Sequence record: PZ386969.1
DNA: 64,000 nt
Direction: 5' to 3' (one strand)
Origin: a phage
Below, piece after piece: positions 2,011-56,833 of the stretch. The notes beneath the pieces were generated by a model. The model saw only the letters and a list, made by a program, of their open reading frames with translations, made no database searches and was not told the origin of the DNA. The position numbers and the translations under genes were made by a program. The stretch's first letter is position 1, and the number at the start of each line of letters is the position of its first letter.

Positions 2011-2325
2011 ATGACCCCATTAAAAGAAATGTATGAGCGCCTGGCTGAACTGCAGGCGAAGGAAAAGCGCTTCTCAGAAGAAGAGTCTGAAATCTCCGAG
2101 CTGAACAACCTGATTGCCACTCGCGAGAAGTACCTGCAGCGCTACATTAATCACCCGCCGCGCATGGTAGACCGCGTCAGCACTATCATGGACCTGGATG
2201 AAGTTACTCCTGGTAAAGAAATCATTGTCAGGGAAGTCCACCAGATGGTCGCCATGGGTCAGATCTTTGGTCGTGCAGACCAAGACGACATGATCTTCCT
2301 CCTTGAAAAGAAACTGGTGATGTGA
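2011..2325 (+). CDS. hypothetical protein
   Basis: ORF with AAGAGGAA RBS; acidic, coiled-coil-like N-terminus; no recognisable domain. Confidence 0.45.
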   Translation: MTPLKEMYERLAELQAKEKRFSEEESEISELNNLIATREKYLQRYINHPPRMVDRVSTIMDLDEVTPGKEIIVREVHQMVAMGQIFGRADQDDMIFLLEKKLVM

Positions 2326-2831
2326 TGGCTATCAAACCCCGTATGTTATTTGCGCATATGCGCTCGGCTCATGCATACGCCCTGTCCAGCTATGCCCAGC
2401 GCCTGAAGGTCGGCTGTGTTATCGTTGACCCGCGTGTTGACCAGCCCCTGTCTATCGGTTGGAACGGGACTGCTCCTGGCGCTCCTAATGTCTGTGAGAA
2501 GGAAGTAGACGGTCAACTGGTATCGGTGGGTGTTATCCACGCCGAGGAGAATGCTCTGAGCAAACTCCCCCAGCACACCGAAGACTGTTGTGGCCTGGTG
2601 ATGTTTGTCACTCATAGCCCATGCCCAGAGTGCACCCGTCGTATTATCGACAGTGGCAAGATCGCTAAAGTGTTCTATGACCGACCATATCGTATCATAG
2701 ACGGCATTATTGAAATGCTGAATGCTGGGATTGAAGTATATCGCATGGTCGATCAGTTTGTTGTAGTCCAGCATTCTGTGAAGAACGGCGAACTGGTATC
2801 CACCCCTGTTTTAGTGAACCCTGACAAATAA
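2325..2831 (+). CDS. dCMP deaminase (cytidine/deoxycytidylate deaminase family)
   Basis: Zinc-binding deaminase motifs HAEENAL and SPCPEC; size about 168 aa typical of dCMP deaminase. Confidence 0.85.
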   Translation: MAIKPRMLFAHMRSAHAYALSSYAQRLKVGCVIVDPRVDQPLSIGWNGTAPGAPNVCEKEVDGQLVSVGVIHAEENALSKLPQHTEDCCGLVMFVTHSPCPECTRRIIDSGKIAKVFYDRPYRIIDGIIEMLNAGIEVYRMVDQFVVVQHSVKNGELVSTPVLVNPDK

Positions 2832-16067: not shown

Positions 16068-17492
16068 CTAGAATTTCCAATTATTGACTGTTTGGGCTTT
16101 CTGCTCATCGCTGGCAGCAGCCCCGGACTTGTTGAGGTCATGTTTGATGTGTACGTTTTCGACATATTTGGCCTCAGCCTCAGTCAGATCCTTCTTAACT
16201 TCGTTCCAGTCCAGGTCAAACAGGATCTGTTTGTCTTGGTCCATACCAAACAGGAATGACTTCAGCTTCTGCTTGTTGGCATAACGGTTCTTGAGTATTG
16301 AGGCTCGGGCTTTCTTGACCGCCGCCAGTTCGTCAGGAGCATAGAATGCCATGATGAAGTCGGCCACCTTCGGAATACCGATAGCATCTGCCAGATCACT
16401 GATTCCACCATCAGTGCTATTCTGATTCTCACGATTGAACTGCATACCAGTCCATACAGGGACATCAAACTCAAATCCCAGCGCACGAAACTCACGAGCC
16501 ACAGACGTGTAATAGACGTTCGTGTTCTGCATCAGGTGGGAAGGCAGGCGCGAGGAAGCAGCTTCGCCAAGATAGTCAATAACGATAACATCAGGAGCAC
16601 GACCTGTTGCCTGGATGTACTCAAGGATATCGCGGCGGAATAAACCCGTGTGTCCAGTACCAGAAGGATATTCCTTGATGACGATATCACCCTTGGGCGC
16701 ACCATCTTGGCGACTGCGGAGCTTCTCTATCGTTGCAATATACTCGTGCCTTGTGAGTTTCTCTAAAGACTCAAAGTCGCGACGCATGATACGGGCATCA
16801 AGACGGTGTCGCCAGACGTTCTCGGCCACTTCAAGGGTGAAGACAAAGACGTTCAGCCCCTGCTCCGAGTACCCTGCGGTCAGGTCAATCAGCGTTGTGG
16901 TCTTACCTGCGTTGATCGCACCTGTTACGATGTTCAGTGTCTTCTTACCAACGCCACCACGTGTCGCCTTATTGAAGATCTCAACTGCGAACGGGATCTT
17001 GGCCTCGTTGGAGTTCATGTGGTCATACTGCTCTGCCGCCATCTCCCAATAGATGTGGCCGAGGTATGAATCAAACCGGATAGCCAGGGCTTCCTGCAAC
17101 ATGGTCGGGATGTTGTTCATCTCGTCCTTGCGCTTCTCGTCACCGTAGATGTTGACGGCGGTCTTGATTGCGTTGTGTACGGCTTTTTGCCGCGCCCAAG
17201 CCTCGGTTTCCTTCGCCAGCCACTCTTCATTGAAGGTGTTGTCGTTGATGTTCTCCAGGGCAGTCACTGCCTGGTCAAACACATATTCGTTCAACTTTGT
17301 CCGTTCAAGAATGATAGATAGTGCTTCGACAGACGGGCGGGCATTGTACTCTGAGGTATAACTGTCAATCAGGCCAAAGATGACCTTTTCGCCTTCGTTG
17401 TCAAAATAATCGGCTTTCAGGTACGGCAGGATCTTTCTTTGGTAATCTTCATTGTAAATCAACTGTGAAAGCACGACAGATTCGAGTAACAT
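16068..17492 (-). CDS. DnaB-family replicative DNA helicase (T4 gp41-like)
   Basis: 474 aa; Walker A GAINAGKTT; DnaB-like C-terminal RecA fold; size matches T4 gp41 (475 aa). Confidence 0.85.
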   Translation of the reverse strand: MLLESVVLSQLIYNEDYQRKILPYLKADYFDNEGEKVIFGLIDSYTSEYNARPSVEALSIILERTKLNEYVFDQAVTALENINDNTFNEEWLAKETEAWARQKAVHNAIKTAVNIYGDEKRKDEMNNIPTMLQEALAIRFDSYLGHIYWEMAAEQYDHMNSNEAKIPFAVEIFNKATRGGVGKKTLNIVTGAINAGKTTTLIDLTAGYSEQGLNVFVFTLEVAENVWRHRLDARIMRRDFESLEKLTRHEYIATIEKLRSRQDGAPKGDIVIKEYPSGTGHTGLFRRDILEYIQATGRAPDVIVIDYLGEAASSRLPSHLMQNTNVYYTSVAREFRALGFEFDVPVWTGMQFNRENQNSTDGGISDLADAIGIPKVADFIMAFYAPDELAAVKKARASILKNRYANKQKLKSFLFGMDQDKQILFDLDWNEVKKDLTEAEAKYVENVHIKHDLNKSGAAASDEQKAQTVNNWKF

Positions 17493-17498
17493 TGGCCA

Positions 17499-17828
17499 CT
17501 ACCCCACCAAAAATTTATTATATTCCTGAGCATTACGCTGCATGAGGTCTACAAGGATATCCCCTGATACCTCAGTGAACAAGTCATTTTCTTTCAAATT
17601 CACAAACATCAGACGCAATGGTTTCTTCAATATATCAGTCACGAAAGACAGGCGGGGTTCGCCGTCCACTTCGTTAATAGCCACCTTGCCGAACCGGAAT
17701 TGAACACCACGGAATTTGCCAGAAGTGATCTTGATGATCGCCAGCTGATCAGCACCAGGGTCGATGATTGTGTAGTTATTGGGGGAGTCTCCTCCCCCTC
17801 CACTATTATTCGCTTGTGTTAATAACAT
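17499..17828 (-). CDS. hypothetical protein
   Basis: ORF 17499..17879; start tentatively moved to internal ATG (MLLTQANN); overlaps 3' end of the recombinase gene; Gly-rich N-terminus. Confidence 0.3.
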   Translation of the reverse strand: MLLTQANNSGGGGDSPNNYTIIDPGADQLAIIKITSGKFRGVQFRFGKVAINEVDGEPRLSFVTDILKKPLRLMFVNLKENDLFTEVSGDILVDLMQRNAQEYNKFLVG

Positions 17829-18891
17829 GGTCCATTTGCTCCAGCATGTTAGCAGGCATAACAGTACCGTTAGAAACACCGAACATTTTCTTCACGTCAT
17901 CGGCGAAGTTGACATTCTCCAGCAGCGGATACCAGAAATCATCACCCATCTGACGCTTCTGATATTTCTTTTCCTTCTCAGGATCGAAACCGCCCTTGGC
18001 TGTACGCACATACCAGCCGGAAGACGGCATATCAACATAACCCAGAGCACGAGCGATCTCAAGCAGGCCGCTCCAGCGATCAATACCACCGTTGTACAGT
18101 ACCGTGACAGGGAGCTTGGCTTTTTCTTTGACATGGCGGCCTTTCATGATGCTTATGTTGAAGTTCCAGCCCAGCAGATCTTTGTCTTCCTTCACCTGAG
18201 AACGGGTGATAAACCAGATCAAGTTGGAGGATAAGAAGCCCTGTTTGCCGCCTTTGATGTTAGGCTCGGCATATTGGTTGCCGATCTCATCGTAATAGGA
18301 GTTGATCCAAACACACACGAGATTTTTGCTGTTGATTTCGGGAGTCATGACACGCCAGAAGCTGTTGAGGGCACGGGCGCGGGTCATGTCTTGAGTGTCG
18401 TTCCCTTTGATCGCATCTTCAACTTCCTTGGTGGAGGGAAGTTGGCTGATAGAGTCGATGAAGATTATAACATGGTCGCCTTTCTTGACTTCCTGTAGGA
18501 TCTGTAGCAATCGGATCTTGGTCTGTTCAACGTTGTCGATCGGTACGTACAGGACGCGATCCATGTCAATGCCCATAGAGGTCCAGTAATCAGCGTTGGC
18601 ACCCTTTTCTGAGTCCGCAAAGACGCAGATAGCATCAGGGAACTTGTCCATGTACGCCTTGACGTCCACCAGACCGAACATCGTTTTGAAGGTACGGGAA
18701 TCACCCACCATCATCTTGATACCGGAGATCAGGCCGCCGTCAATACGCCCAGACCATGCGATGTCGATCAGGGGAATACCAGTAGAACAGATGATAGACG
18801 GTTCCAGAGCGTCTGATTGGGACAGCACTGAAGCCTGGTCATCGTGTTTCTTAGCAACCTTCAGCATGCGGTCCATTAATGAACTGGCCAT
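17806..18891 (-). CDS. uvsX: RecA-like recombinase (UvsX-like)
   Basis: 361 aa; RecA core with Walker A-like GDSRTFKT; AAGAGGAAG RBS. Confidence 0.8.
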   Translation of the reverse strand: MASSLMDRMLKVAKKHDDQASVLSQSDALEPSIICSTGIPLIDIAWSGRIDGGLISGIKMMVGDSRTFKTMFGLVDVKAYMDKFPDAICVFADSEKGANADYWTSMGIDMDRVLYVPIDNVEQTKIRLLQILQEVKKGDHVIIFIDSISQLPSTKEVEDAIKGNDTQDMTRARALNSFWRVMTPEINSKNLVCVWINSYYDEIGNQYAEPNIKGGKQGFLSSNLIWFITRSQVKEDKDLLGWNFNISIMKGRHVKEKAKLPVTVLYNGGIDRWSGLLEIARALGYVDMPSSGWYVRTAKGGFDPEKEKKYQKRQMGDDFWYPLLENVNFADDVKKMFGVSNGTVMPANMLEQMDHVINTSE

Positions 18892-19418
18892 TTCACTTCC
18901 TCTTTGTTGTTAATCGTCGTTAGTAAGTCTACACCCATAACCTTCTGGGACAAAATGTTAACCGCCTCTTGGATGCTCTTCAGGGACATTATCTCAACAA
19001 GTGACGATGCGTCATTATGCCGGTCGGTTAGGTACATATTGCGCAGATTGTTGTAGTTCGTGCGGTTGATGCACGCAGTGTTCAGTGCTATATTCAGGAT
19101 ATACATCATCTGTTCAATGGTTATATCCTTTGGCATAGCGTGGATGTAATAGATCGATCCTTCAAAATAGACGTCTACCAGTTCATCTGGTATCTTGATA
19201 CCACCACTGGCATACTCTTCGATCATTCTGAACAGAGACTCTGGTTGCTCGCTGGCGATCTTATGCGTAACAGTCGCCGAAAGACCGTCGCCCGGTTTAA
19301 CAGGCCTGTTGTATTCAGTAAGGAATACATTATGGCCGCCGCCGATGATGTGCTCGGCGAATTTGGAGGATGCCTGAGCAGCGTTCTCCGCATGGTATGA
19401 AACGACGACTGTAAACAT
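18876..19418 (-). CDS. hypothetical protein
   Basis: 180-aa ORF, last gene of the nucleotide operon, overlapping the recombinase start. Confidence 0.4.
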   Translation of the reverse strand: MFTVVVSYHAENAAQASSKFAEHIIGGGHNVFLTEYNRPVKPGDGLSATVTHKIASEQPESLFRMIEEYASGGIKIPDELVDVYFEGSIYYIHAMPKDITIEQMMYILNIALNTACINRTNYNNLRNMYLTDRHNDASSLVEIMSLKSIQEAVNILSQKVMGVDLLTTINNKEEVKWPVH

Positions 19419-19972
19419 TAGAACTCCAGGGTCAGAGGGGTTTCTGCGGACTTGTCGTAATCCGCGCCACCAGAAGCACGCAGACGATTGCGATCGTTCT
19501 TGCGTTTGTGCGCCAGCATGTAAGTCTCAATGTCGATCTCCATATAAGAACACGCAGACGACAGGAAGAACATGAGAGTCTCAACGCAAGGATCGTTCAT
19601 GAATTGCCCAAGGCGGTACGTAACATTGCGATGCCCTACAACACCCAAAGCAGATGGGGTGAATTCGCGATTACTGAGGACTTCAAATTCTTCTTCGATC
19701 TCACCTTTGGTTCGGTCCACAAGGATGAAGCACAACATGAAGTGTACCACGTCCACCAGTTCATAAACTGCGTTCGTATGGTCAAACCCGATGTCGTTGC
19801 CATAGACCTTCCAGTCACGGGTGGTTTCATCAAGGAACTCTGCCCACTCACGATAGATGGAGTTGATGACTGCGTTCTGACTCCATACATTCTTCCACTC
19901 TTCCCCAAAATAGGCCACGTTGGTGACCTTTTGGAGTTCGAGCAGGCTTTTGATATGTCCTGCTGTGATCAT
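19418..19972 (-). CDS. all-alpha NTP pyrophosphatase (dimeric dUTPase/MazG-like)
   Basis: Acidic helical motifs (EEWKNVW, EFLDETTRDW, ELVDVVHF) resembling dimeric dUTPase-like pyrophosphatases; ATGA coupling to the upstream kinase. Confidence 0.45.
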   Translation of the reverse strand: MITAGHIKSLLELQKVTNVAYFGEEWKNVWSQNAVINSIYREWAEFLDETTRDWKVYGNDIGFDHTNAVYELVDVVHFMLCFILVDRTKGEIEEEFEVLSNREFTPSALGVVGHRNVTYRLGQFMNDPCVETLMFFLSSACSYMEIDIETYMLAHKRKNDRNRLRASGGADYDKSAETPLTLEF

Positions 19973-20538
19973 TTACGTTCTCCGTAGAATTTAACGAACG
20001 GTTCCCAACCATCAAATGGATTGAGGAATTCGTAGTCCACTTTCATTTGGTCAATGAAAGCCTCTATATCGTCCTCTATGATACCAGCACGGTCGGCCTT
20101 TGAAATACGGGTGATAGGACATTTCGTACTCAGCGCCCATTCATATTCCTGAGGGGTACGCAGATCGCTCACGATATAATGGACGTGGGGGTTCTGCTCT
20201 ACCAGAGGAAGCTGGAAGCGCTTGAAGAATGCCAGGAACAGATCGGGTTGTACGTAACGCAAGCCCGTATCGCTGCCTAGATGAAGCCAGATCTGCCGTG
20301 GAGTTAAGCCCTTGGGGTTATCAGGGTGCACGTAAGGAACGTCCTTCACGGCATCCTCTACCTCCGCTGGGAGCCATGGGTAGATGTAGTTGGCCACACG
20401 GCGCAGTTCATCTGAGAACGAAAGGCGCTGGATGTCCATATCACCCTGTAGTTGGTGATAGCTGATGAGGGACTCCAAACAGAAGTCCTTACCGGAGCGT
20501 TTGCGCCCCGTAAAGAATTCAAGATTTGGGTACATCAT
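19969..20538 (-). CDS. deoxynucleoside monophosphate kinase (T4 gp1-like)
   Basis: N-terminal P-loop FTGRKRSGKD closely matches T4 gp1 (GVKRSGKD); 189 aa; GGAAGG RBS. Confidence 0.7.
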   Translation of the reverse strand: MMYPNLEFFTGRKRSGKDFCLESLISYHQLQGDMDIQRLSFSDELRRVANYIYPWLPAEVEDAVKDVPYVHPDNPKGLTPRQIWLHLGSDTGLRYVQPDLFLAFFKRFQLPLVEQNPHVHYIVSDLRTPQEYEWALSTKCPITRISKADRAGIIEDDIEAFIDQMKVDYEFLNPFDGWEPFVKFYGERK

Positions 20539-21581
20539 ACTACACCTTCCAGGAACTTAGGATCAACGATCTTGCGGTCAACCGGAGAATGGGTGAGCGC
20601 GGTGTTCAAGCCATGATCCTGAATCAGGTCCAGGTTAATGAGCTTTTCGTTCAGTTTGCAGTGCAGACAGTACGCCATCTGTACAATCAGGCCGCGATCC
20701 GCATCGTATTCCTTCAGGTGAGCAACCACAGTTTCCCACGGGCTACCGATATCACAGTGATGAAGCACACCAGTGAACAGATTGCGGATATGGTTCTGGT
20801 TGGTCACGTTCGTGAAGTGGATCATGGAGTTGATGAACCCAGCTTCTACTTTGGTGTCCTTCGTGATCTTGCCCAGCTGCTTCTGGCTGACTTCATTGTT
20901 GTAGTAATGAAGATTGTTAGAGAATAGCTTGTACTGACCGACATCAACATCTAACACCCGAGCAATCACTTCCTGAAGAATAGAGAACTCAATGAAGTTG
21001 ATTGAACTCATCCCCCACAGAACATCCTGTGAGCGATTGATGACCGTCAGGTTCAGACGACCTTCAACGATGGCGAACAACAGAGCCAGGTTACACACCA
21101 TGTCCTTAGTCTTTGCTTCGCCGCTCTCGCTGAACTTCGCCAGACCAGCATCCGAATCTAGAGCCGGGTCATAGATGGTGAGGTACGCCTGACGAGTGTT
21201 TGGGTTCTTGCGCAGGCGGTTGATAACGCTATCCAGCTGGCCATGGGCGTACAGACGCGGACCATAAGCAGCTCGCCATGTTACCCCATCATCCGAAAAG
21301 TTAGCAGCGCGAGGCAATACGCGTGACAGGAACTTTATGTCGTTGCGGCCTGACAACACCCAGAAGGTCTCGCCGATGGCAGCGATAGCCGATGAGTTGC
21401 GACCTTCAACGGAGAGCCAGCGGTCACGAATATCGGAAACAGTGATAGTCACACCATCAAGGAAGCGGGTGCTATCAGTATTGATTTCAGCATTACCAGG
21501 ATCAGATTCGATCCCGAATTCACGGATAGCCAAGACAGCCTGCTTCAGCATGTCATTGTTGTTAATTGCTTTGATTTCCAT
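20535..21581 (-). CDS. thymidylate synthase-family enzyme (ThyA-like or dUMP hydroxymethylase)
   Basis: TS-fold motifs: NPNTRQAYLTIYDP, catalytic-Cys region MVCNLALLF (PCH-like), INRSQDV, and pyrimidine-specificity Asn in GMSSINF. Confidence 0.75.
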   Translation of the reverse strand: MEIKAINNNDMLKQAVLAIREFGIESDPGNAEINTDSTRFLDGVTITVSDIRDRWLSVEGRNSSAIAAIGETFWVLSGRNDIKFLSRVLPRAANFSDDGVTWRAAYGPRLYAHGQLDSVINRLRKNPNTRQAYLTIYDPALDSDAGLAKFSESGEAKTKDMVCNLALLFAIVEGRLNLTVINRSQDVLWGMSSINFIEFSILQEVIARVLDVDVGQYKLFSNNLHYYNNEVSQKQLGKITKDTKVEAGFINSMIHFTNVTNQNHIRNLFTGVLHHCDIGSPWETVVAHLKEYDADRGLIVQMAYCLHCKLNEKLINLDLIQDHGLNTALTHSPVDRKIVDPKFLEGVV

Positions 21582-22240
21582 CAGATACTCCCAAAATCAC
21601 GACAGAGGAATGCCATCACAGCCTGGTCTACCGTTAGGCCGTGAGACTTCATCATACCCGCAGCCACCGTAGGGAACAAGTCTTTATGTCGTTGACGATG
21701 GTCATGAACTCTCTCCCACTTCTCGACCACCAGACTTTCATTGAAGTCCACACCGCCGTTACGTGATTTAACGCGGGTGATACACGTTTCAAGAGGAGTG
21801 TCCATAAAGAGCACAACCAATTCACGTGGTGGGCGTGTCAGACGGGGGATCCAAGAACTCAATAATGTGGATGGAATGATACCTTCGAAAATCACATCAT
21901 ATTTCAAGTATTCTGGTTGGTCAGCAATAGACAACGCGAACAACATCTGCTCAGTGTCCTTCAGGGAATCAACCCCCTTGGACTTCGACTTGTCATATTT
22001 ACCGATACAGACCACGTTGAACGAAGGACAGACAGTCAGCATGACCTTGCCATTATGGGTCACGACATACGCCTGAGGATCCCTCTCCGCCAGCTGAGAC
22101 GGCACAGTGGATTTACCGCTACCATTGGAGCCTTTGACGTAGTAGATTTGCCCTCGTGCTGGGTAGATCCCCTTTACGACGGGTGGTTTAAAGAATGTGT
22201 GGACGGGGCGCTTCATCAACCCCTTCAGGGAGTAGGACAT
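21581..22240 (-). CDS. P-loop kinase (candidate nucleotide or DNA-base kinase)
   Basis: Walker A YYVKGSNGSGKST; start moved to ATG (MSYSLKG) with GGAG RBS; stop overlaps the TS-family gene start. Confidence 0.55.
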   Translation of the reverse strand: MSYSLKGLMKRPVHTFFKPPVVKGIYPARGQIYYVKGSNGSGKSTVPSQLAERDPQAYVVTHNGKVMLTVCPSFNVVCIGKYDKSKSKGVDSLKDTEQMLFALSIADQPEYLKYDVIFEGIIPSTLLSSWIPRLTRPPRELVVLFMDTPLETCITRVKSRNGGVDFNESLVVEKWERVHDHRQRHKDLFPTVAAGMMKSHGLTVDQAVMAFLCRDFGSI

Positions 22241-22249
22241 AAACTGCTC

Positions 22250-22285
22250 CAATAAACAAAAGGAGCTGCTATTATAGCAGCCCCT
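22250..22285 (-). terminator. intrinsic terminator
   Basis: Minus strand GGGGCTGCTATAATAGCAGCTCC followed by TTTTGTTTATT. Confidence 0.55.
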
Positions 22286-22314
22286 TCATCTTTTGAACAG
22301 TTTCTGAACTTAAA

Positions 22315-23154
22315 TTACGCAGCAGCTTTCGCTTCAGCCAGAGCCTGTGGAAGCCATTCATTGATCGCCTTAACCAGAGACTCAGCATCAGACTCTTTGA
22401 TCTTCTGACGTTTGGTGAAGGACTTGCCGTTCACGTACAGACTGAAGCCCCAGCCACCGGAAACGATAGGCGCAACGTCGACATACGTATTGGTGCGGGC
22501 GTGAAGGTTTTCAGGGTTAGCCAGTTCGGTGACCGGGAACTGGAACCAACGCATGTCTGGGTTCACGTAGCTCAGGAACACGCCGGGGACAACACCAGCT
22601 TCAATCGCCGCCAAGACCGGACCGTGATTAGAAGCGCGAGCCAAGTCAACCATTTCCTCACGTTTGGTGTGACGGCGTTTACGCTCTACCAGCGCTGCCT
22701 GCGGGGTCAGGGTCTTACCCTTCGATGCTTCTTTCAGCATAGAAGACGCTAAGGAACCGATTTTCGCGTCGGACGGCTGATTGCCTTCTTCCAGCGCCGC
22801 GTTGACTGCATCTTTAACCGCGTCTACCGGGGCGTCGGACACTGGGGCTTCACATGCATCGGCAGAGATCGGTGCTTCAGCATCAACGGTTTCAGCGACT
22901 TTCAGGGATACTTCAGCTTGGGCTTGCTCTTGGGCTTGCGCCAGAGCCTGCTGAGTTTCTTCCTTCTCTTCGGCGCTCAGACCTTCAATCAGTTCGAAGC
23001 CGTTGGCAGCCTGAAGAACACCTTCAACCATACGGCGCAGGGTAACGTTTCCGATGACCAGACCTGCTTCTTTGATTTCAGCCTGAATAGCAGCAACGTC
23101 TTTGCCTTCAATTTCAATTTTGGTTCCAGAATCCACATGAAGAATATATGACAT
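22315..23154 (-). CDS. hypothetical protein
   Basis: 279 aa with acidic, Ala-rich central linker; driven by an early promoter and followed by an intrinsic terminator. Confidence 0.45.
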   Translation of the reverse strand: MSYILHVDSGTKIEIEGKDVAAIQAEIKEAGLVIGNVTLRRMVEGVLQAANGFELIEGLSAEEKEETQQALAQAQEQAQAEVSLKVAETVDAEAPISADACEAPVSDAPVDAVKDAVNAALEEGNQPSDAKIGSLASSMLKEASKGKTLTPQAALVERKRRHTKREEMVDLARASNHGPVLAAIEAGVVPGVFLSYVNPDMRWFQFPVTELANPENLHARTNTYVDVAPIVSGGWGFSLYVNGKSFTKRQKIKESDAESLVKAINEWLPQALAEAKAAA

Positions 23155-23224
23155 AATAAAAACCCTTTCGTTATTAAGACCGTATCCGCGGCATATTGTT
23201 GTTCTGACTGTGTAGTGAGAACAT

Positions 23225-23252
23225 AATATACTGCATTTTCATAGATGTAAAC
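23225..23252 (-). promoter_or_regulatory. early promoter E (-35 GTTTAC, 16-nt spacer, -10 TATATT)
   Basis: Minus strand AAAGTAGTTTACATCTATGAAAATGCAGTATATT upstream of the gene starting at 23154. Confidence 0.45.
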
Positions 23253-23343
23253 TACTTTTTATTGAAAAGAAAGTTAACACCTTAGTGTTATAAGGTGCGC
23301 GACCAAGCGGAGCGCGAACTTGCGTGAATATTAACTTTCTACG

Positions 23344-23619
23344 TCAATATAGAAAAACCATTTCCGGCGGCCAACAATTTGTTAGCTCGACTTTTGCGAA
23401 CCGTGGTTGGCAGTACGCATCAACCGACTCATCAAACAGACAGTGTTCTACATTTGCAATCATCAGATCATCATCCACCACTTCAACAGAATGGACAATG
23501 ATCTTGTGGTCATACGTCAGGCAACCGTCTAAATGCATGTTGTCGGCGCGGAGGTGTTGCATGATGAAATACTCTATGATCGACTCAAGGACAGTCGTCA
23601 GCTTCAGATAACGTTTCAT
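23344..23619 (-). CDS. hypothetical protein
   Basis: Start moved to ATG (MKRYLKL) with GAGAGG RBS. Confidence 0.4.
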   Translation of the reverse strand: MKRYLKLTTVLESIIEYFIMQHLRADNMHLDGCLTYDHKIIVHSVEVVDDDLMIANVEHCLFDESVDAYCQPRFAKVELTNCWPPEMVFLY

Positions 23620-23639
23620 ACACACCTCTCACAGTGGAG

Positions 23640-24389
23640 TTATTTGGACAGGTAGAAGTTTGGAACTTCAGGGAAATGCTCTGGTAGATATCCCACCAGA
23701 ACATCCTGTTTCACCTTCCCTTCGATATCTTCGCGGATACGACGAATCACTTCTTCCTGTTGTTCTGCTGCCATCACTTCTTCCATGGCTGAGTACAAGT
23801 TTTCTAGAATGGCACCTACGTAGTTGTGGATGGCACGACAGGAGTTCTGATCATACTCCATATCCGGATGAATCGCCAGGTCGACCTGATCACGCCCTAC
23901 CAGCAGATGCCCAGACACCAGATTTATCGGGTGTTTGAATACTTCACTAGATTTGACAGCAACTCCGTCAGCTTGCTTCAGCAGGAATTCGGTTTCAGAG
24001 AAGCGTTCAAGCAGTTCCGATGGGAATACCATATCGAGATTCTGACGCTTGCGACCAAAGAAGTATAGACAATGCGCCAGCTTCAGGCAAGCCTCTGTCG
24101 CCATCTTCATATGCGCTTTGGCATGTTCATATCCAGCGATCACATCACGGACATAATCGTACAGGTCGGCATGACCAAAACGAATGTCTTCGCTGAACTG
24201 AATTGCGGTTTCGCTGTCTTCTTTCAGACCCAGCGCGTCGAAGATATTGTGTTCACGGACAGATCTGCCATTGCGATCGAACCCCAGGACGCAACCGACT
24301 TCGAACCCGCTCTTTTCAAAGTTTGGGAGTTTCATTTCAAGACGGGCTGGCGTAAACTCCAGACCGAACAAACGATACATTTGTGACAT
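23640..24389 (-). CDS. hypothetical protein
   Basis: 249-aa ORF with GAGG RBS; contains an HxD (FGHADL) segment and downstream His residues but no confident fold assignment. Confidence 0.45.
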   Translation of the reverse strand: MSQMYRLFGLEFTPARLEMKLPNFEKSGFEVGCVLGFDRNGRSVREHNIFDALGLKEDSETAIQFSEDIRFGHADLYDYVRDVIAGYEHAKAHMKMATEACLKLAHCLYFFGRKRQNLDMVFPSELLERFSETEFLLKQADGVAVKSSEVFKHPINLVSGHLLVGRDQVDLAIHPDMEYDQNSCRAIHNYVGAILENLYSAMEEVMAAEQQEEVIRRIREDIEGKVKQDVLVGYLPEHFPEVPNFYLSK

Positions 24390-24452
24390 GTTATAGCCTC
24401 ATTGTTGAAGGATTACCCGTTCACGAATTATCCCTCGGAACAGGTTATAGAA

Positions 24453-25157
24453 CTATTTCTTCTTATGCATACGACGTGCATCTTTCCACACAGACATCTG
24501 GCTCTGTTTCTGGAAGCGAGCCGTGCGCATGAAGAGAACGATCTCCCAGTACTGTGGTTCAATCTCGTAAAGCTGTGAACGGAACTGATCGGCGCGGTAC
24601 AGCTTCACACAGTGATTGTACAGCGGATGGTTGGCGAAGCGCTTCAGGGCTTCCCAGGTGAGCTTCAGACGCGTCTTTGAGCGGTATGCCCGTTCGTTAC
24701 GCAACTTAATCAGATCCTCAAACACCAACAGCCTGAGCTTCGGTGGCAGGTAGTGCATGTTGAGTCCCCAGAGGTATGTCACACCCTTCTCTCCAAAGGT
24801 GATACCATCACCCTTGACAAAGTTGAAGAAGAACACCAGAGGGTACATATCCCAGTAGGGTAGTTCATTCTTCGTCAGAGCATCATATTTGAAATAGAAC
24901 ATACGCCCGACTATATACCGCACACCTTGTACCGGACGTTTGTGATCAGCAAACGCCTGTTTCATATGGTTGGGATTCAGGTTGGCGTCCTTAGACACAC
25001 GCTCCATGAACCACACATGCGAACGGCGGATGTTACGCTTCGCCTCTGGACCGAAGTGTTGACGGTACTTGCGGATGTAACGCTTGACCAGCTCGGGGGC
25101 GTCCATCTCGGCCGGAAACAGCAACGGATCTTCTTCGCCAGCTGCATTCTTTGCCAT
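24453..25157 (-). CDS. hypothetical protein
   Basis: 234-aa ORF with AGGAG RBS; aromatic-rich core, basic C-terminus. Confidence 0.45.
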   Translation of the reverse strand: MAKNAAGEEDPLLFPAEMDAPELVKRYIRKYRQHFGPEAKRNIRRSHVWFMERVSKDANLNPNHMKQAFADHKRPVQGVRYIVGRMFYFKYDALTKNELPYWDMYPLVFFFNFVKGDGITFGEKGVTYLWGLNMHYLPPKLRLLVFEDLIKLRNERAYRSKTRLKLTWEALKRFANHPLYNHCVKLYRADQFRSQLYEIEPQYWEIVLFMRTARFQKQSQMSVWKDARRMHKKK

Positions 25158-56554: not shown

Positions 56555-56833
56555 TTACTTGCCGTTGGCAGCGTTCTTCAGACCTTCGCCCACTTTGAAT
56601 TTCACAACGTTTTTCGCCGCGATCTGAATGGTCTGGCCGTCCAGAGGGTTGCGGCCTTCACGCGCTTCTTGGTGTTTCACTTCGAACGCACCGAAGCCGA
56701 CCAGCTGTACAGATGCGCCTGCAGCAACTGCAGTCTTAACACCGTTGATAAAGGATGCCACTACTTTCTCCGCTTCGCCTTTGGTGATGTTCTGGGTCGA
56801 AGCAATGTGGGCAACAAATTCAGTACGATTCAT
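56555..56833 (-). CDS. HU/IHF-family histone-like DNA-binding protein
   Basis: 92 aa; near-canonical HU signature (VQLVGFGAFEVKHQEAREGRNPLDGQTIQIAAKNV). Confidence 0.9.
   Translation of the reverse strand: MNRTEFVAHIASTQNITKGEAEKVVASFINGVKTAVAAGASVQLVGFGAFEVKHQEAREGRNPLDGQTIQIAAKNVVKFKVGEGLKNAANGK

Follow-up and report, generated by a model that had tools for sequence, protein, structure and literature searches.

A cluster of overlapping minus-strand genes in the 64,000-nt phage sequence analysed here (PZ386969.1; "the window") very probably encodes the pre-replicative half and the first post-replicative enzyme of a ViI-type thymidine hypermodification pathway. Because the cluster combines a putative dUMP-hydroxymethylase pathway with a candidate kinase for 5-hmdU in DNA, we propose that the phage DNA carries a modified thymine, predicted by analogy with ViI to be 5-(2-aminoethoxy)methyl-dU (5-NeOmdU) replacing T in part. 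A preliminary description of the window had already suggested a modified thymine, which the near-orthology of the kinase to ViI gp67 and the synteny with ViI support. Its hmU-type pathway likewise agrees with the predicted dUMP hydroxymethylase and 5-hmdU kinase, but the appropriate model is ViI rather than Bacillus phage SPO1. All pathway roles in the window phage are assigned by orthology. The relevant features are as follows.

17806..18891, minus strand: UvsX/RecA-like recombinase (PF00154 and PF21134; 70% identity to ViI uvsX)
18876..19418, minus strand: 180-aa ACT-like (ferredoxin-fold) protein (PF24021 ACT_phage, E=1.7e-79)
19418..19972, minus strand: all-alpha (dimeric) dUTPase-family nucleoside triphosphate pyrophosphatase (PF08761, E=1.8e-8)
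19969..20538, minus strand: dNMP kinase, T4 gp1 family (PHROG 139, E=1.2e-47)
20535..21581, minus strand: thymidylate synthase (TS)-family enzyme, predicted dUMP 5-hydroxymethylase (PF00303, E=1.1e-15)
21581..22240, minus strand: predicted 5-hmdU DNA kinase (5-HMUDK), ViI gp67 orthologue (PF18748 HMUDK_HMUD1, E=1.7e-108)
22259..22287, minus strand: putative terminator-like hairpin with a 13-bp stem and T-rich tail (pattern scan and sequence)
2325..2831, plus strand: dCMP deaminase (PF00383, E=4.2e-16; 64% identity to ViI Vi01_030)
56555..56833, minus strand: HU-family DNA-binding protein (PF00216, E=5.7e-29; 85% identity to ViI Vi01_107c)

The five minus-strand reading frames that the preliminary description had joined by ATGA/TGATG overlaps were all recovered at their positions, as were the dCMP deaminase and HU-like genes that it had placed outside the cluster. 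The kinase and TS genes meet at TGATG (1-nt overlap), while the TS/dNMP kinase and dNMP kinase/dUTPase junctions are both ATGA (4-nt overlap). The fourth junction, however, is TAATG (1-nt overlap), and the chain continues past the 180-aa gene through a 16-nt overlap into uvsX, which is context and lies outside the modification chemistry. In the relative Escherichia phage vB_EcoM-ZQ1 the chain reaches a seventh gene. Gene overlap by itself is common in a genome of this type, occurring at 21 of 59 same-strand junctions in the ZQ1 annotation of the same 50 kb; the longest overlap run there comprises six consecutive junctions and coincides with the modification cluster, and the runner-up comprises two. 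At the upstream end, the terminator-like hairpin sits between a 279-aa ORF and the kinase start. The kinase had originally been extended to TTG 22252, which falls in the hairpin tail. Since ATG 22240 is preceded at 7 nt by a GGAG Shine-Dalgarno sequence and its translation fits the ViI gp67 N-terminus (MSYSLKG), this codon is most likely the start.

The nearest complete genome is that of ZQ1 (~98% nucleotide identity to the window), and Shigella phage Ag3 matches the window at 92%; the window represents another isolate of a known group, an Aglimvirinae/Agtrevirus-like Ackermannviridae phage. The cluster is 89–98% identical at the nucleotide level to those of Aglimvirinae relatives (Ag3, Dickeya phages LIMEstone and PP35, and Escherichia phage AV101), and its gene order is also kept in a divergent metagenomic relative. 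In Salmonella phage ViI (Kuttervirus), which belongs to Cvivirinae whereas the window phage belongs to Aglimvirinae, the six genes are arranged just as in the window: gp67 kinase, TS homologue, dnk, dUTPase, orf62 and uvsX (Vi01_061c-056c). The six proteins share, in this order, 88, 77 (Vi01_060c), 90, 61 (Vi01_058c), 55 and 70% identity with their window counterparts. The closest link to demonstrated chemistry is the kinase, which carries the Walker A motif GSNGSGKST and is 87.7% identical over 219 aa to ViI gp67 (YP_004327432), an enzyme that phosphorylates 5-hmdU in DNA in vitro (PMC8989533). This match, together with PF18748, bears out the earlier suggestion that the second P-loop kinase of the cluster is of the type acting on 5-hmdU in DNA. 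Several public records label the protein "thymidylate kinase" or "terminase small subunit"; as names for 5-HMUDK, both are wrong.

As ViI synteny predicts, the 64-kb window contains no clade-2 aGPT-Pplase of the Ser:DNA transferase type, PLP decarboxylase, second kinase or aGPT-Pplase1. ZQ1 encodes homologues of ViI gp247 (88.6% identity; PF18724 amino acid:DNA transferase), gp226 (91%), gp160 (82%) and gp243 (the second kinase; 47%, PF18747, with a 235-aa extension), and from such relatives the four downstream ViI enzymes may be expected in this genome as well. It is because the remaining ViI enzymes are all present in ZQ1, at 47–91% identity, that we predict 5-NeOmdU as the product. In ViI and other genera, the kinase, transferase and decarboxylase activities and virion 5-NeOmdU are experimentally established (PMC8989533; PMC5889632). 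The modified nucleoside (301 Da) was measured in ViI, CBA120, CBA6 and Vibrio phage 1.255.O (PMC5889632), and also in Taipeivirus phiHS2 (bioRxiv 10.64898/2026.05.19.726188), and virion DNA of ViI and its relatives contains 5-NeOmdU and no 5-hmdU (PMC8989533; PMC5889632).

By analogy with ViI, the pathway would begin with dUMP, predicted to be supplied by the dCMP deaminase and by the dUTPase-family pyrophosphatase, which may deplete dUTP/dTTP as well. On the TS-family enzyme, C5 of dUMP would receive the methylene carried by CH2-THF; hydration of the exocyclic methylene by Asp160-activated water, in place of hydride transfer, would then give 5-hmdUMP (dUMP + CH2-THF + H2O -> 5-hmdUMP + THF). 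The gp1-like dNMP kinase would then form 5-hmdUDP and host NDP kinase 5-hmdUTP, which the phage polymerase would insert into DNA. After replication, some of the 5-hmdU residues in DNA would be phosphorylated on their hydroxymethyl group by 5-HMUDK, with ATP as the donor, yielding 5-PmdU. Two further enzymes, both presumably encoded outside the window, would act next: a serine:DNA transferase of the ViI gp247 type, producing O-serinyl-thymidine, and a PLP decarboxylase of the gp226 type, producing 5-NeOmdU. Leftover 5-hmdU would become thymine.

The TS homologue is called thymidylate synthase in public records. As noted in the preliminary description, it retains the catalytic Cys (Cys163) and the uracil-specifying Asn (Asn195), the latter indicating uracil as the base. 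Its PF00303 match is confined to residues 67–235, and it stays below the cut-off of every NCBIfam ThyA equivalog model (best 57.8 bits, cut-off 327). In blastp searches it was closer to the SPO1 dUMP hydroxymethylase gp29 (34% identity, E=5e-33) than to E. coli ThyA (22%, E=1e-13), and its nearest PDB sequence is the MilA hydroxymethylase. When the AF2 model (pLDDT 93.3) was compared with PDB structures, the CMP hydroxymethylase MilA matched best, in a full-length alignment (TM 0.70). The predicted structure lacks the TS C-terminal tail and has a MilA-like helical domain of ~100 aa instead. Among 120 homologues Glu71, Tyr106, Asp160, Cys163 and Asn195 are invariant. Asp160 occupies the Cys-3 position (D160-M-V-C163), where E. 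coli ThyA has Leu143, and an Asp at this position is common to the TS homologue, the SPO1 dUMP hydroxymethylase and the T4 dCMP hydroxymethylase. Such an Asp is a proposed water activator and belongs to the proposed signature (Asp/Glu at this position) of TS-superfamily pyrimidine hydroxymethylases; a TS is expected to have a hydrophobic Cys-3 residue and a C-terminal tail that seals the active site for hydride transfer (PMC6400193). The Ser/Thr-x-Tyr half of the hydroxymethylase signature is absent from the TS homologue, which reads Ala104-Ala105-Tyr106. Since gp29, a proven dUMP hydroxymethylase, likewise carries Ala two residues before its catalytic Tyr, this half-signature appears to be restricted to dCMP/CMP enzymes. 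Asp160, the affinity to gp29 and MilA and the missing tail lead us to predict that the protein is a dUMP hydroxymethylase. The preliminary description held that sequence alone could not tell the two activities apart, which underrates what the sequence shows; in blastp, and in the structure comparison that it had suggested, the hydroxymethylases came out nearer.

The P-loop of the dNMP kinase (GRKRSGKD) fits that of T4 gp1 (GVKRSGKD), an atypical G-x-K-R-S-G-K-D motif. The "T4 gp1-like" assignment holds at the level of this motif and PHROG 139, but not of clear pairwise similarity, as the alignment to gp1 is weak (E=0.003, plus a collinear second segment); the protein has no Pfam, NCBIfam or PDB sequence match. 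It is predicted to make 5-hmdUDP from 5-hmdUMP. The identification of a dimeric dUTPase-like protein was confirmed by PF08761 (dUTPase_2; 35.3 bits, cut-off 22.9) and PHROG 173 (E=1.3e-39). The protein also matches the C. jejuni dimeric dUTPase 1w2y (E=0.0019), to which its acidic motifs E42-x-x-E45 and E71-x-x-D74 align, and it is predicted to convert dUTP, possibly dTTP too, to dNMP and PPi. The preliminary description had further read the enzymes as a SPO1-like hmU set. The dCMP deaminase and the hydroxymethylase fit this view, but similarity of the dUTPase-like protein to the SPO1 candidate dUTPase/dTTPase gp22.1 was undetectable, and the argument from HU and TF1 is weak: the HU-family protein is 38% identical to SPO1 TF1 and is an ordinary family member; any tie to modified DNA is speculative.

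The 180-aa protein has the ACT beta-alpha-beta-beta-alpha-beta fold, is confined to Ackermannviridae and has a nearly invariant C-terminus of 30 residues. Its gene sits directly between those of the nucleotide enzymes and uvsX and overlaps the start/stop codons of either neighbour. There is a small chance that it is an uncharacterised pathway component, for example a small-molecule-sensing regulator, a scaffold between 5-hmdUTP synthesis and recombination-dependent replication, or a factor that turns residual 5-hmdU into thymine.

Could the TS homologue be a genuine thymidylate synthase, and the cluster simply serve dTTP supply as td/gene 1 does in T4, with 5-HMUDK inactive or serving another role? 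The kept catalytic Cys, Glu and Tyr and the uracil-specifying Asn would suit such an enzyme, as would its public annotation and the ordinary thymine found at about 60–84% of T positions in measured relatives. We nevertheless assign this reading a negligible probability, given Asp160 in place of Leu, the MilA-like domain where a sealing tail should be, scores far under all ThyA equivalog cut-offs, and SPO1 dUMP hydroxymethylase and MilA being closer than any TS. ZQ1 has a single TS-family gene detectable by tblastn.

If the enzyme does make 5-hmdUMP, the phage might instead, like SPO1, replace thymine with unmodified 5-hydroxymethyluracil, the P-loop kinase acting on nucleotides and not on DNA. 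In favour of this, hmU phages have a parallel pre-replicative set of dUMP hydroxymethylase, dCMP deaminase, dUTPase-like protein and dNMP kinase (PMC8989533), older Ackermannviridae literature says so, with the AV101 paper still describing Agtrevirus DNA as HMdU-substituted, and several records call the kinase "thymidylate kinase" or "terminase small subunit". The near-identity of the kinase to an enzyme acting within DNA, the retention of transferase and decarboxylase at 89–91% in the nearest genome and the lack of 5-hmdU in ViI-group virion DNA make this highly improbable. It is also very unlikely that this subfamily keeps the same architecture but ends in another hypermodification, for example through a different amino acid donor or no decarboxylation. 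The donor does vary elsewhere, aGPT-Pplase2 of other phages using glycine or putrescine (PMC8989533); the ZQ1 second kinase diverges and is extended relative to gp243, and in the literature searched we found no nucleoside analysis of any Aglimvirinae phage. Yet the ZQ1 transferase and decarboxylase are close to the ViI enzymes, and the far more distant Vibrio phage 1.255.O and Taipeivirus phiHS2 still make 5-NeOmdU. A ViI-type pathway ending in 5-NeOmdU thus remains our preferred reading.

The pathway is already published, and since 2018 the literature has drawn attention to its genes in phages that are 89–98% identical. A list of 5-HMUDK phages with predicted 5-NeOmdU includes Ag3, SKML-39 and LIMEstone (PMC5889632). 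For PP35, ORF43 and ORF44 were named as dUMP hydroxymethyltransferase and kinase, and the orthologues were enumerated and described as conserved across all Ackermannviridae, the structure of the modification being "yet to be determined" (PMC6336734). The same genes have also been listed in print for all Agtrevirus genomes. The present analysis adds a sequence and structure argument against the "thymidylate synthase" label of most database records. Ackermannviridae DNA with 5-NeOmdU resists most tested restriction enzymes, and the modification complicates sequencing and cloning and bears on the use of these broad-host-range phages in therapy.

Compared with SPO1, the window phage likewise has a dCMP deaminase and an HU-family protein, and its TS homologue shares the TKD-x-x-CNL and FSDDG...YG-x-RL motifs with the SPO1 hydroxymethylase. 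However, the 5-hmdU of SPO1 DNA stays as it is, and descriptions of 5-HMUDK are limited to hypermodifying phages; plain hmU replaces all T in SPO1, whereas 5-NeOmdU replaces about 16–40% in ViI. T4 follows the same logic with gp42, gp1, gp56 and cd: its TS-family hydroxymethylase likewise has Asp at Cys-3, its dNTP pyrophosphatase is an all-alpha enzyme of the gp56 family, and a dCMP deaminase and a gp1-type dNMP kinase complete the set. In T4 the base is cytosine (Asp179) and the post-replicative step is glucosylation, whereas in the window phage the base would be uracil (Asn195) and the corresponding steps phosphorylation and then amino-acid transfer.

By megablast, both the cluster and the window's first 25 kb belong to the Ackermannviridae, subfamily Aglimvirinae: Escherichia phage vB_EcoM-ZQ1 (ZQ1, the nearest complete genome) is 98.4% identical, YX22, RPN242, fGh-Ecl02 and AV101 are 96.5-98% identical, and the values for Shigella phage Ag3 and the Dickeya limestoneviruses are 92% and 89%. 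Almost the entire window is collinear with ZQ1 45086-109837. A six-frame ORF listing, from which the five cluster ORFs are given here with their flanking features, and the junction sequences confirmed the preliminary description of five consecutive minus-strand genes joined by overlaps.

22259-22287, minus: strong terminator-like hairpin (13-bp stem and T-tail), directly upstream of the kinase start
21581-22252 (likely start ATG 22240), minus: kinase
20535-21581, minus: thymidylate synthase (TS) homologue
19969-20538, minus: dNMP kinase
19418-19972, minus: pyrophosphatase
18876-19418, minus: 180-aa ACT-like protein
17806-18891, minus: uvsX, overlapping the 180-aa gene by 16 nt

On the coding strand, the five cluster genes meet at TGATG, ATGA, ATGA and TAATG (overlaps of 1, 4, 4 and 1 nt), and the overlapping chain extends past the 180-aa gene into uvsX. 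According to the ZQ1 annotation, the overlap run at the cluster comprises six junctions and seven genes and is the longest in a 50-kb stretch; overlaps occur at 21 of the 59 same-strand junctions there, and the runner-up run is 2. Judging from the sequence, ATG 22240 is the most likely start of the kinase gene, since GGAG lies 7 nt upstream and the resulting N-terminus matches that of the Salmonella phage ViI orthologue, whereas TTG 22252 falls inside the T-rich tail of the hairpin. No convincing sigma-70 promoter was found after the hairpin, and the cluster may be transcribed either by read-through of the hairpin or from a phage-specific promoter. Upstream of the cluster, a 279-aa Ala/Glu-rich ORF (22315-23154, minus) has no Pfam match, and neither does a 249-aa ORF at 23640-24389.

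The kinase matched the Pfam family PF18748, "5-hmdU DNA kinase" (5-HMUDK), with E=1.7e-108 and shares 87.7% identity over 219 residues with ViI gp67 (YP_004327432), which as a purified enzyme phosphorylates 5-hmdU within DNA (PMC8989533). Both matches agree with the earlier proposal that this P-loop kinase is of the type acting on 5-hmdU in DNA. Orthologues of the kinase are widely mislabelled in databases, either as "terminase small subunit" (RefSeq ViI, Ag3 and SKML-39; PHROG 800) or as "thymidylate kinase".

We aligned the TS homologue with enzymes of known chemistry, namely SPO1 gp29 (dUMP hydroxymethylase), T4 gp42 (dCMP hydroxymethylase) and E. coli ThyA. The catalytic Cys163 as well as Glu71 and Tyr106 are retained, and an Asn occupies position 195, matching ThyA and SPO1 (Asp179 in T4) and indicating uracil as the substrate base; the catalytic Cys and uracil-specifying Asn noted previously were thus both found. 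The residue three positions before the cysteine is Asp160, likewise Asp in SPO1 gp29 and T4 gp42 (Asp145) and Leu143 in ThyA. Aspartate at this position activates the substrate water and is a proposed hydroxymethylase signature, while the TS C-terminal tail, which seals the site for hydride transfer, is missing from hydroxymethylases (PMC6400193). All 120 retrieved homologues keep Asp160, Cys163 and Asn195 unchanged. The published signature has a second half, Ser/Thr-x-Tyr, which the TS homologue lacks (Ala104); the proven dUMP hydroxymethylase SPO1 gp29 also carries Ala there, so this half seems to be specific to the cytosine enzymes.

Database comparisons point in the same direction. The Pfam TS match is limited to residues 67-235 (E=1.1e-15), and the protein scores far under the cut-off of all NCBIfam ThyA equivalogs (57.8 vs 327 bits). 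By blastp, identity is 34% to SPO1 gp29 (E=5e-33) vs 22% to ThyA (E=1e-13), and the best PDB sequence match is the CMP hydroxymethylase MilA (E=1.4e-17), true TSs reaching at best 3.5e-9. A high-confidence AF2 model (pLDDT 93.3) aligned with MilA over the full length, including the ~100-residue C-terminal helical domain (TM 0.70, 351 columns), whereas with true TSs the core alone aligned (236-272 columns, TM 0.52-0.57). The caveat that sequence could not separate a TS from a hydroxymethylase was therefore too cautious, as sequence and predicted fold both favour a dUMP hydroxymethylase. P0023, a 70%-identical database homologue, is already named "deoxyuridylate hydroxymethyltransferase" in one source. 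Orthologues are also found labelled "thymidylate synthase" in database annotations. In ZQ1, tblastn detected one TS-family gene and no second.

The dNMP kinase matched PHROG 139 (E=1.2e-47) and, at 90% identity, ViI dnk; no PDB sequence match was obtained. Its unusual P-loop, G-x-KRSGKD, recurs in T4 gp1, to which little further pairwise similarity is detectable. The pyrophosphatase exceeds the Pfam cut-off for PF08761 (dimeric dUTPase), and Campylobacter dUTPase aligns with it at the acidic motifs E42xxE45 and E71xxD74; besides dUTP, it might also act on dTTP. It is not similar to gp22.1, the candidate enzyme in SPO1, and has a short ELVD-x-HF motif alone in common with T4 gp56. The dCMP deaminase was as first described, with PF00383 and 64% identity to its ViI counterpart, and so was the HU-family protein, with PF00216 and identities of 85% to ViI and 38% to SPO1 TF1. 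The proposed link to TF1 amounts to membership of one family.

In the ACT-like gene, the last five codons and stop (…E-V-K-W-P-V-H*) are dual-coding with the uvsX Shine-Dalgarno and first codons (GAGGAAGTGAAATGGCCAGTTCATTAATG; 18876-18900, minus). The C-terminal ~30 residues hardly vary among 13 homologues but have AF2 pLDDT <50, which suggests a partner-dependent motif. Six weak repeats in the 1702-aa database protein P0143 matched ACT_phage profile positions 25-88 (E=1.9e-8); this protein has no Pfam domain, and the match may be spurious.

In ViI, conversion of phosphorylated 5-hmdU (5-PmdU) to the final hypermodified thymidine, 5-NeOmdU, requires the serine:DNA transferase gp247 and the PLP decarboxylase gp226; paralogues are gp243, a second kinase, and gp160, aGPT-Pplase1 (PMC5889632, PMC8989533). 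No homologues of these four were found within the 64-kb window, as expected from the position of the ViI genes at 87, 140, 150 and 151 kb. ZQ1 encodes homologues of gp247 (88.6%; PF18724, amino acid:DNA transferase), gp226 (91%; PALP), gp160 (82%; PF18723) and gp243 (47%; PF18747). The last (22876-24474), annotated "putative homing endonuclease", carries PF18747 at residues 236-531 behind a 235-residue N-terminal extension lacking a Pfam match; either a gene fusion or a wrongly placed start codon could account for this. At ZQ1 17202-21384 and 21438-21788, a DNA polymerase is annotated as three pieces with an intervening ORF, suggesting that an intron, an intein or a homing endonuclease has inserted there, and beside it lies a "putative 5'(3') deoxyribonucleotidase", which may correspond to the dTMPase that hmU phages encode.

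For the present phage we infer every step of the following pathway. The dCMP deaminase and pyrophosphatase would supply dUMP, which the hydroxymethylase would convert to 5-hmdUMP; the dNMP kinase and host NDK would then yield 5-hmdUTP for incorporation by the phage polymerase. These pre-replicative steps are proposed by homology to the SPO1 and T4 systems. After replication, 5-HMUDK would phosphorylate a subset of 5-hmdU residues, serine transfer and decarboxylation would give 5-NeOmdU, and leftover 5-hmdU would become T (PMC8989533); in ViI, the phosphorylation, serine transfer and decarboxylation were demonstrated biochemically.

The initial observation is thus confirmed, and its reading as an hmU-type pathway producing a modified thymine is supported with refinements. 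An SPO1-type system would give plain hmU DNA, and both 5-HMUDK and the downstream enzymes seen in ZQ1 speak against that. The cluster is very probably the ViI system: the order kinase-TS homologue-dnk-dUTPase-orf62-uvsX is common to both, the ViI gp67 gene (Vi01_061c) being directly followed by thyA, dnk, dUTPase, orf62 and uvsX. This system is already known in print. The 5-HMUDK phages listed by Lee et al. 2018, for which 5-NeOmdU was predicted, include Ag3, SKML-39 and LIMEstone (PMC5889632). Orthologues assigned in PP35 comprise the dUMP hydroxymethyltransferase ORF43, kinases ORF44/183, PLP enzyme ORF169 and aGPT-Pplases ORF113/187, and were called conserved across all Ackermannviridae (PMC6336734); for Agtrevirus, a family review of 2024 and the paper on AV101 make the same statement. 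5-NeOmdU itself was measured at ~40% of T in ViI, CBA120, CBA6 and Vibrio phage 1.255.O (PMC5889632) and at 16.4% in the Taipeivirus phiHS2 (bioRxiv 10.64898/2026.05.19.726188).
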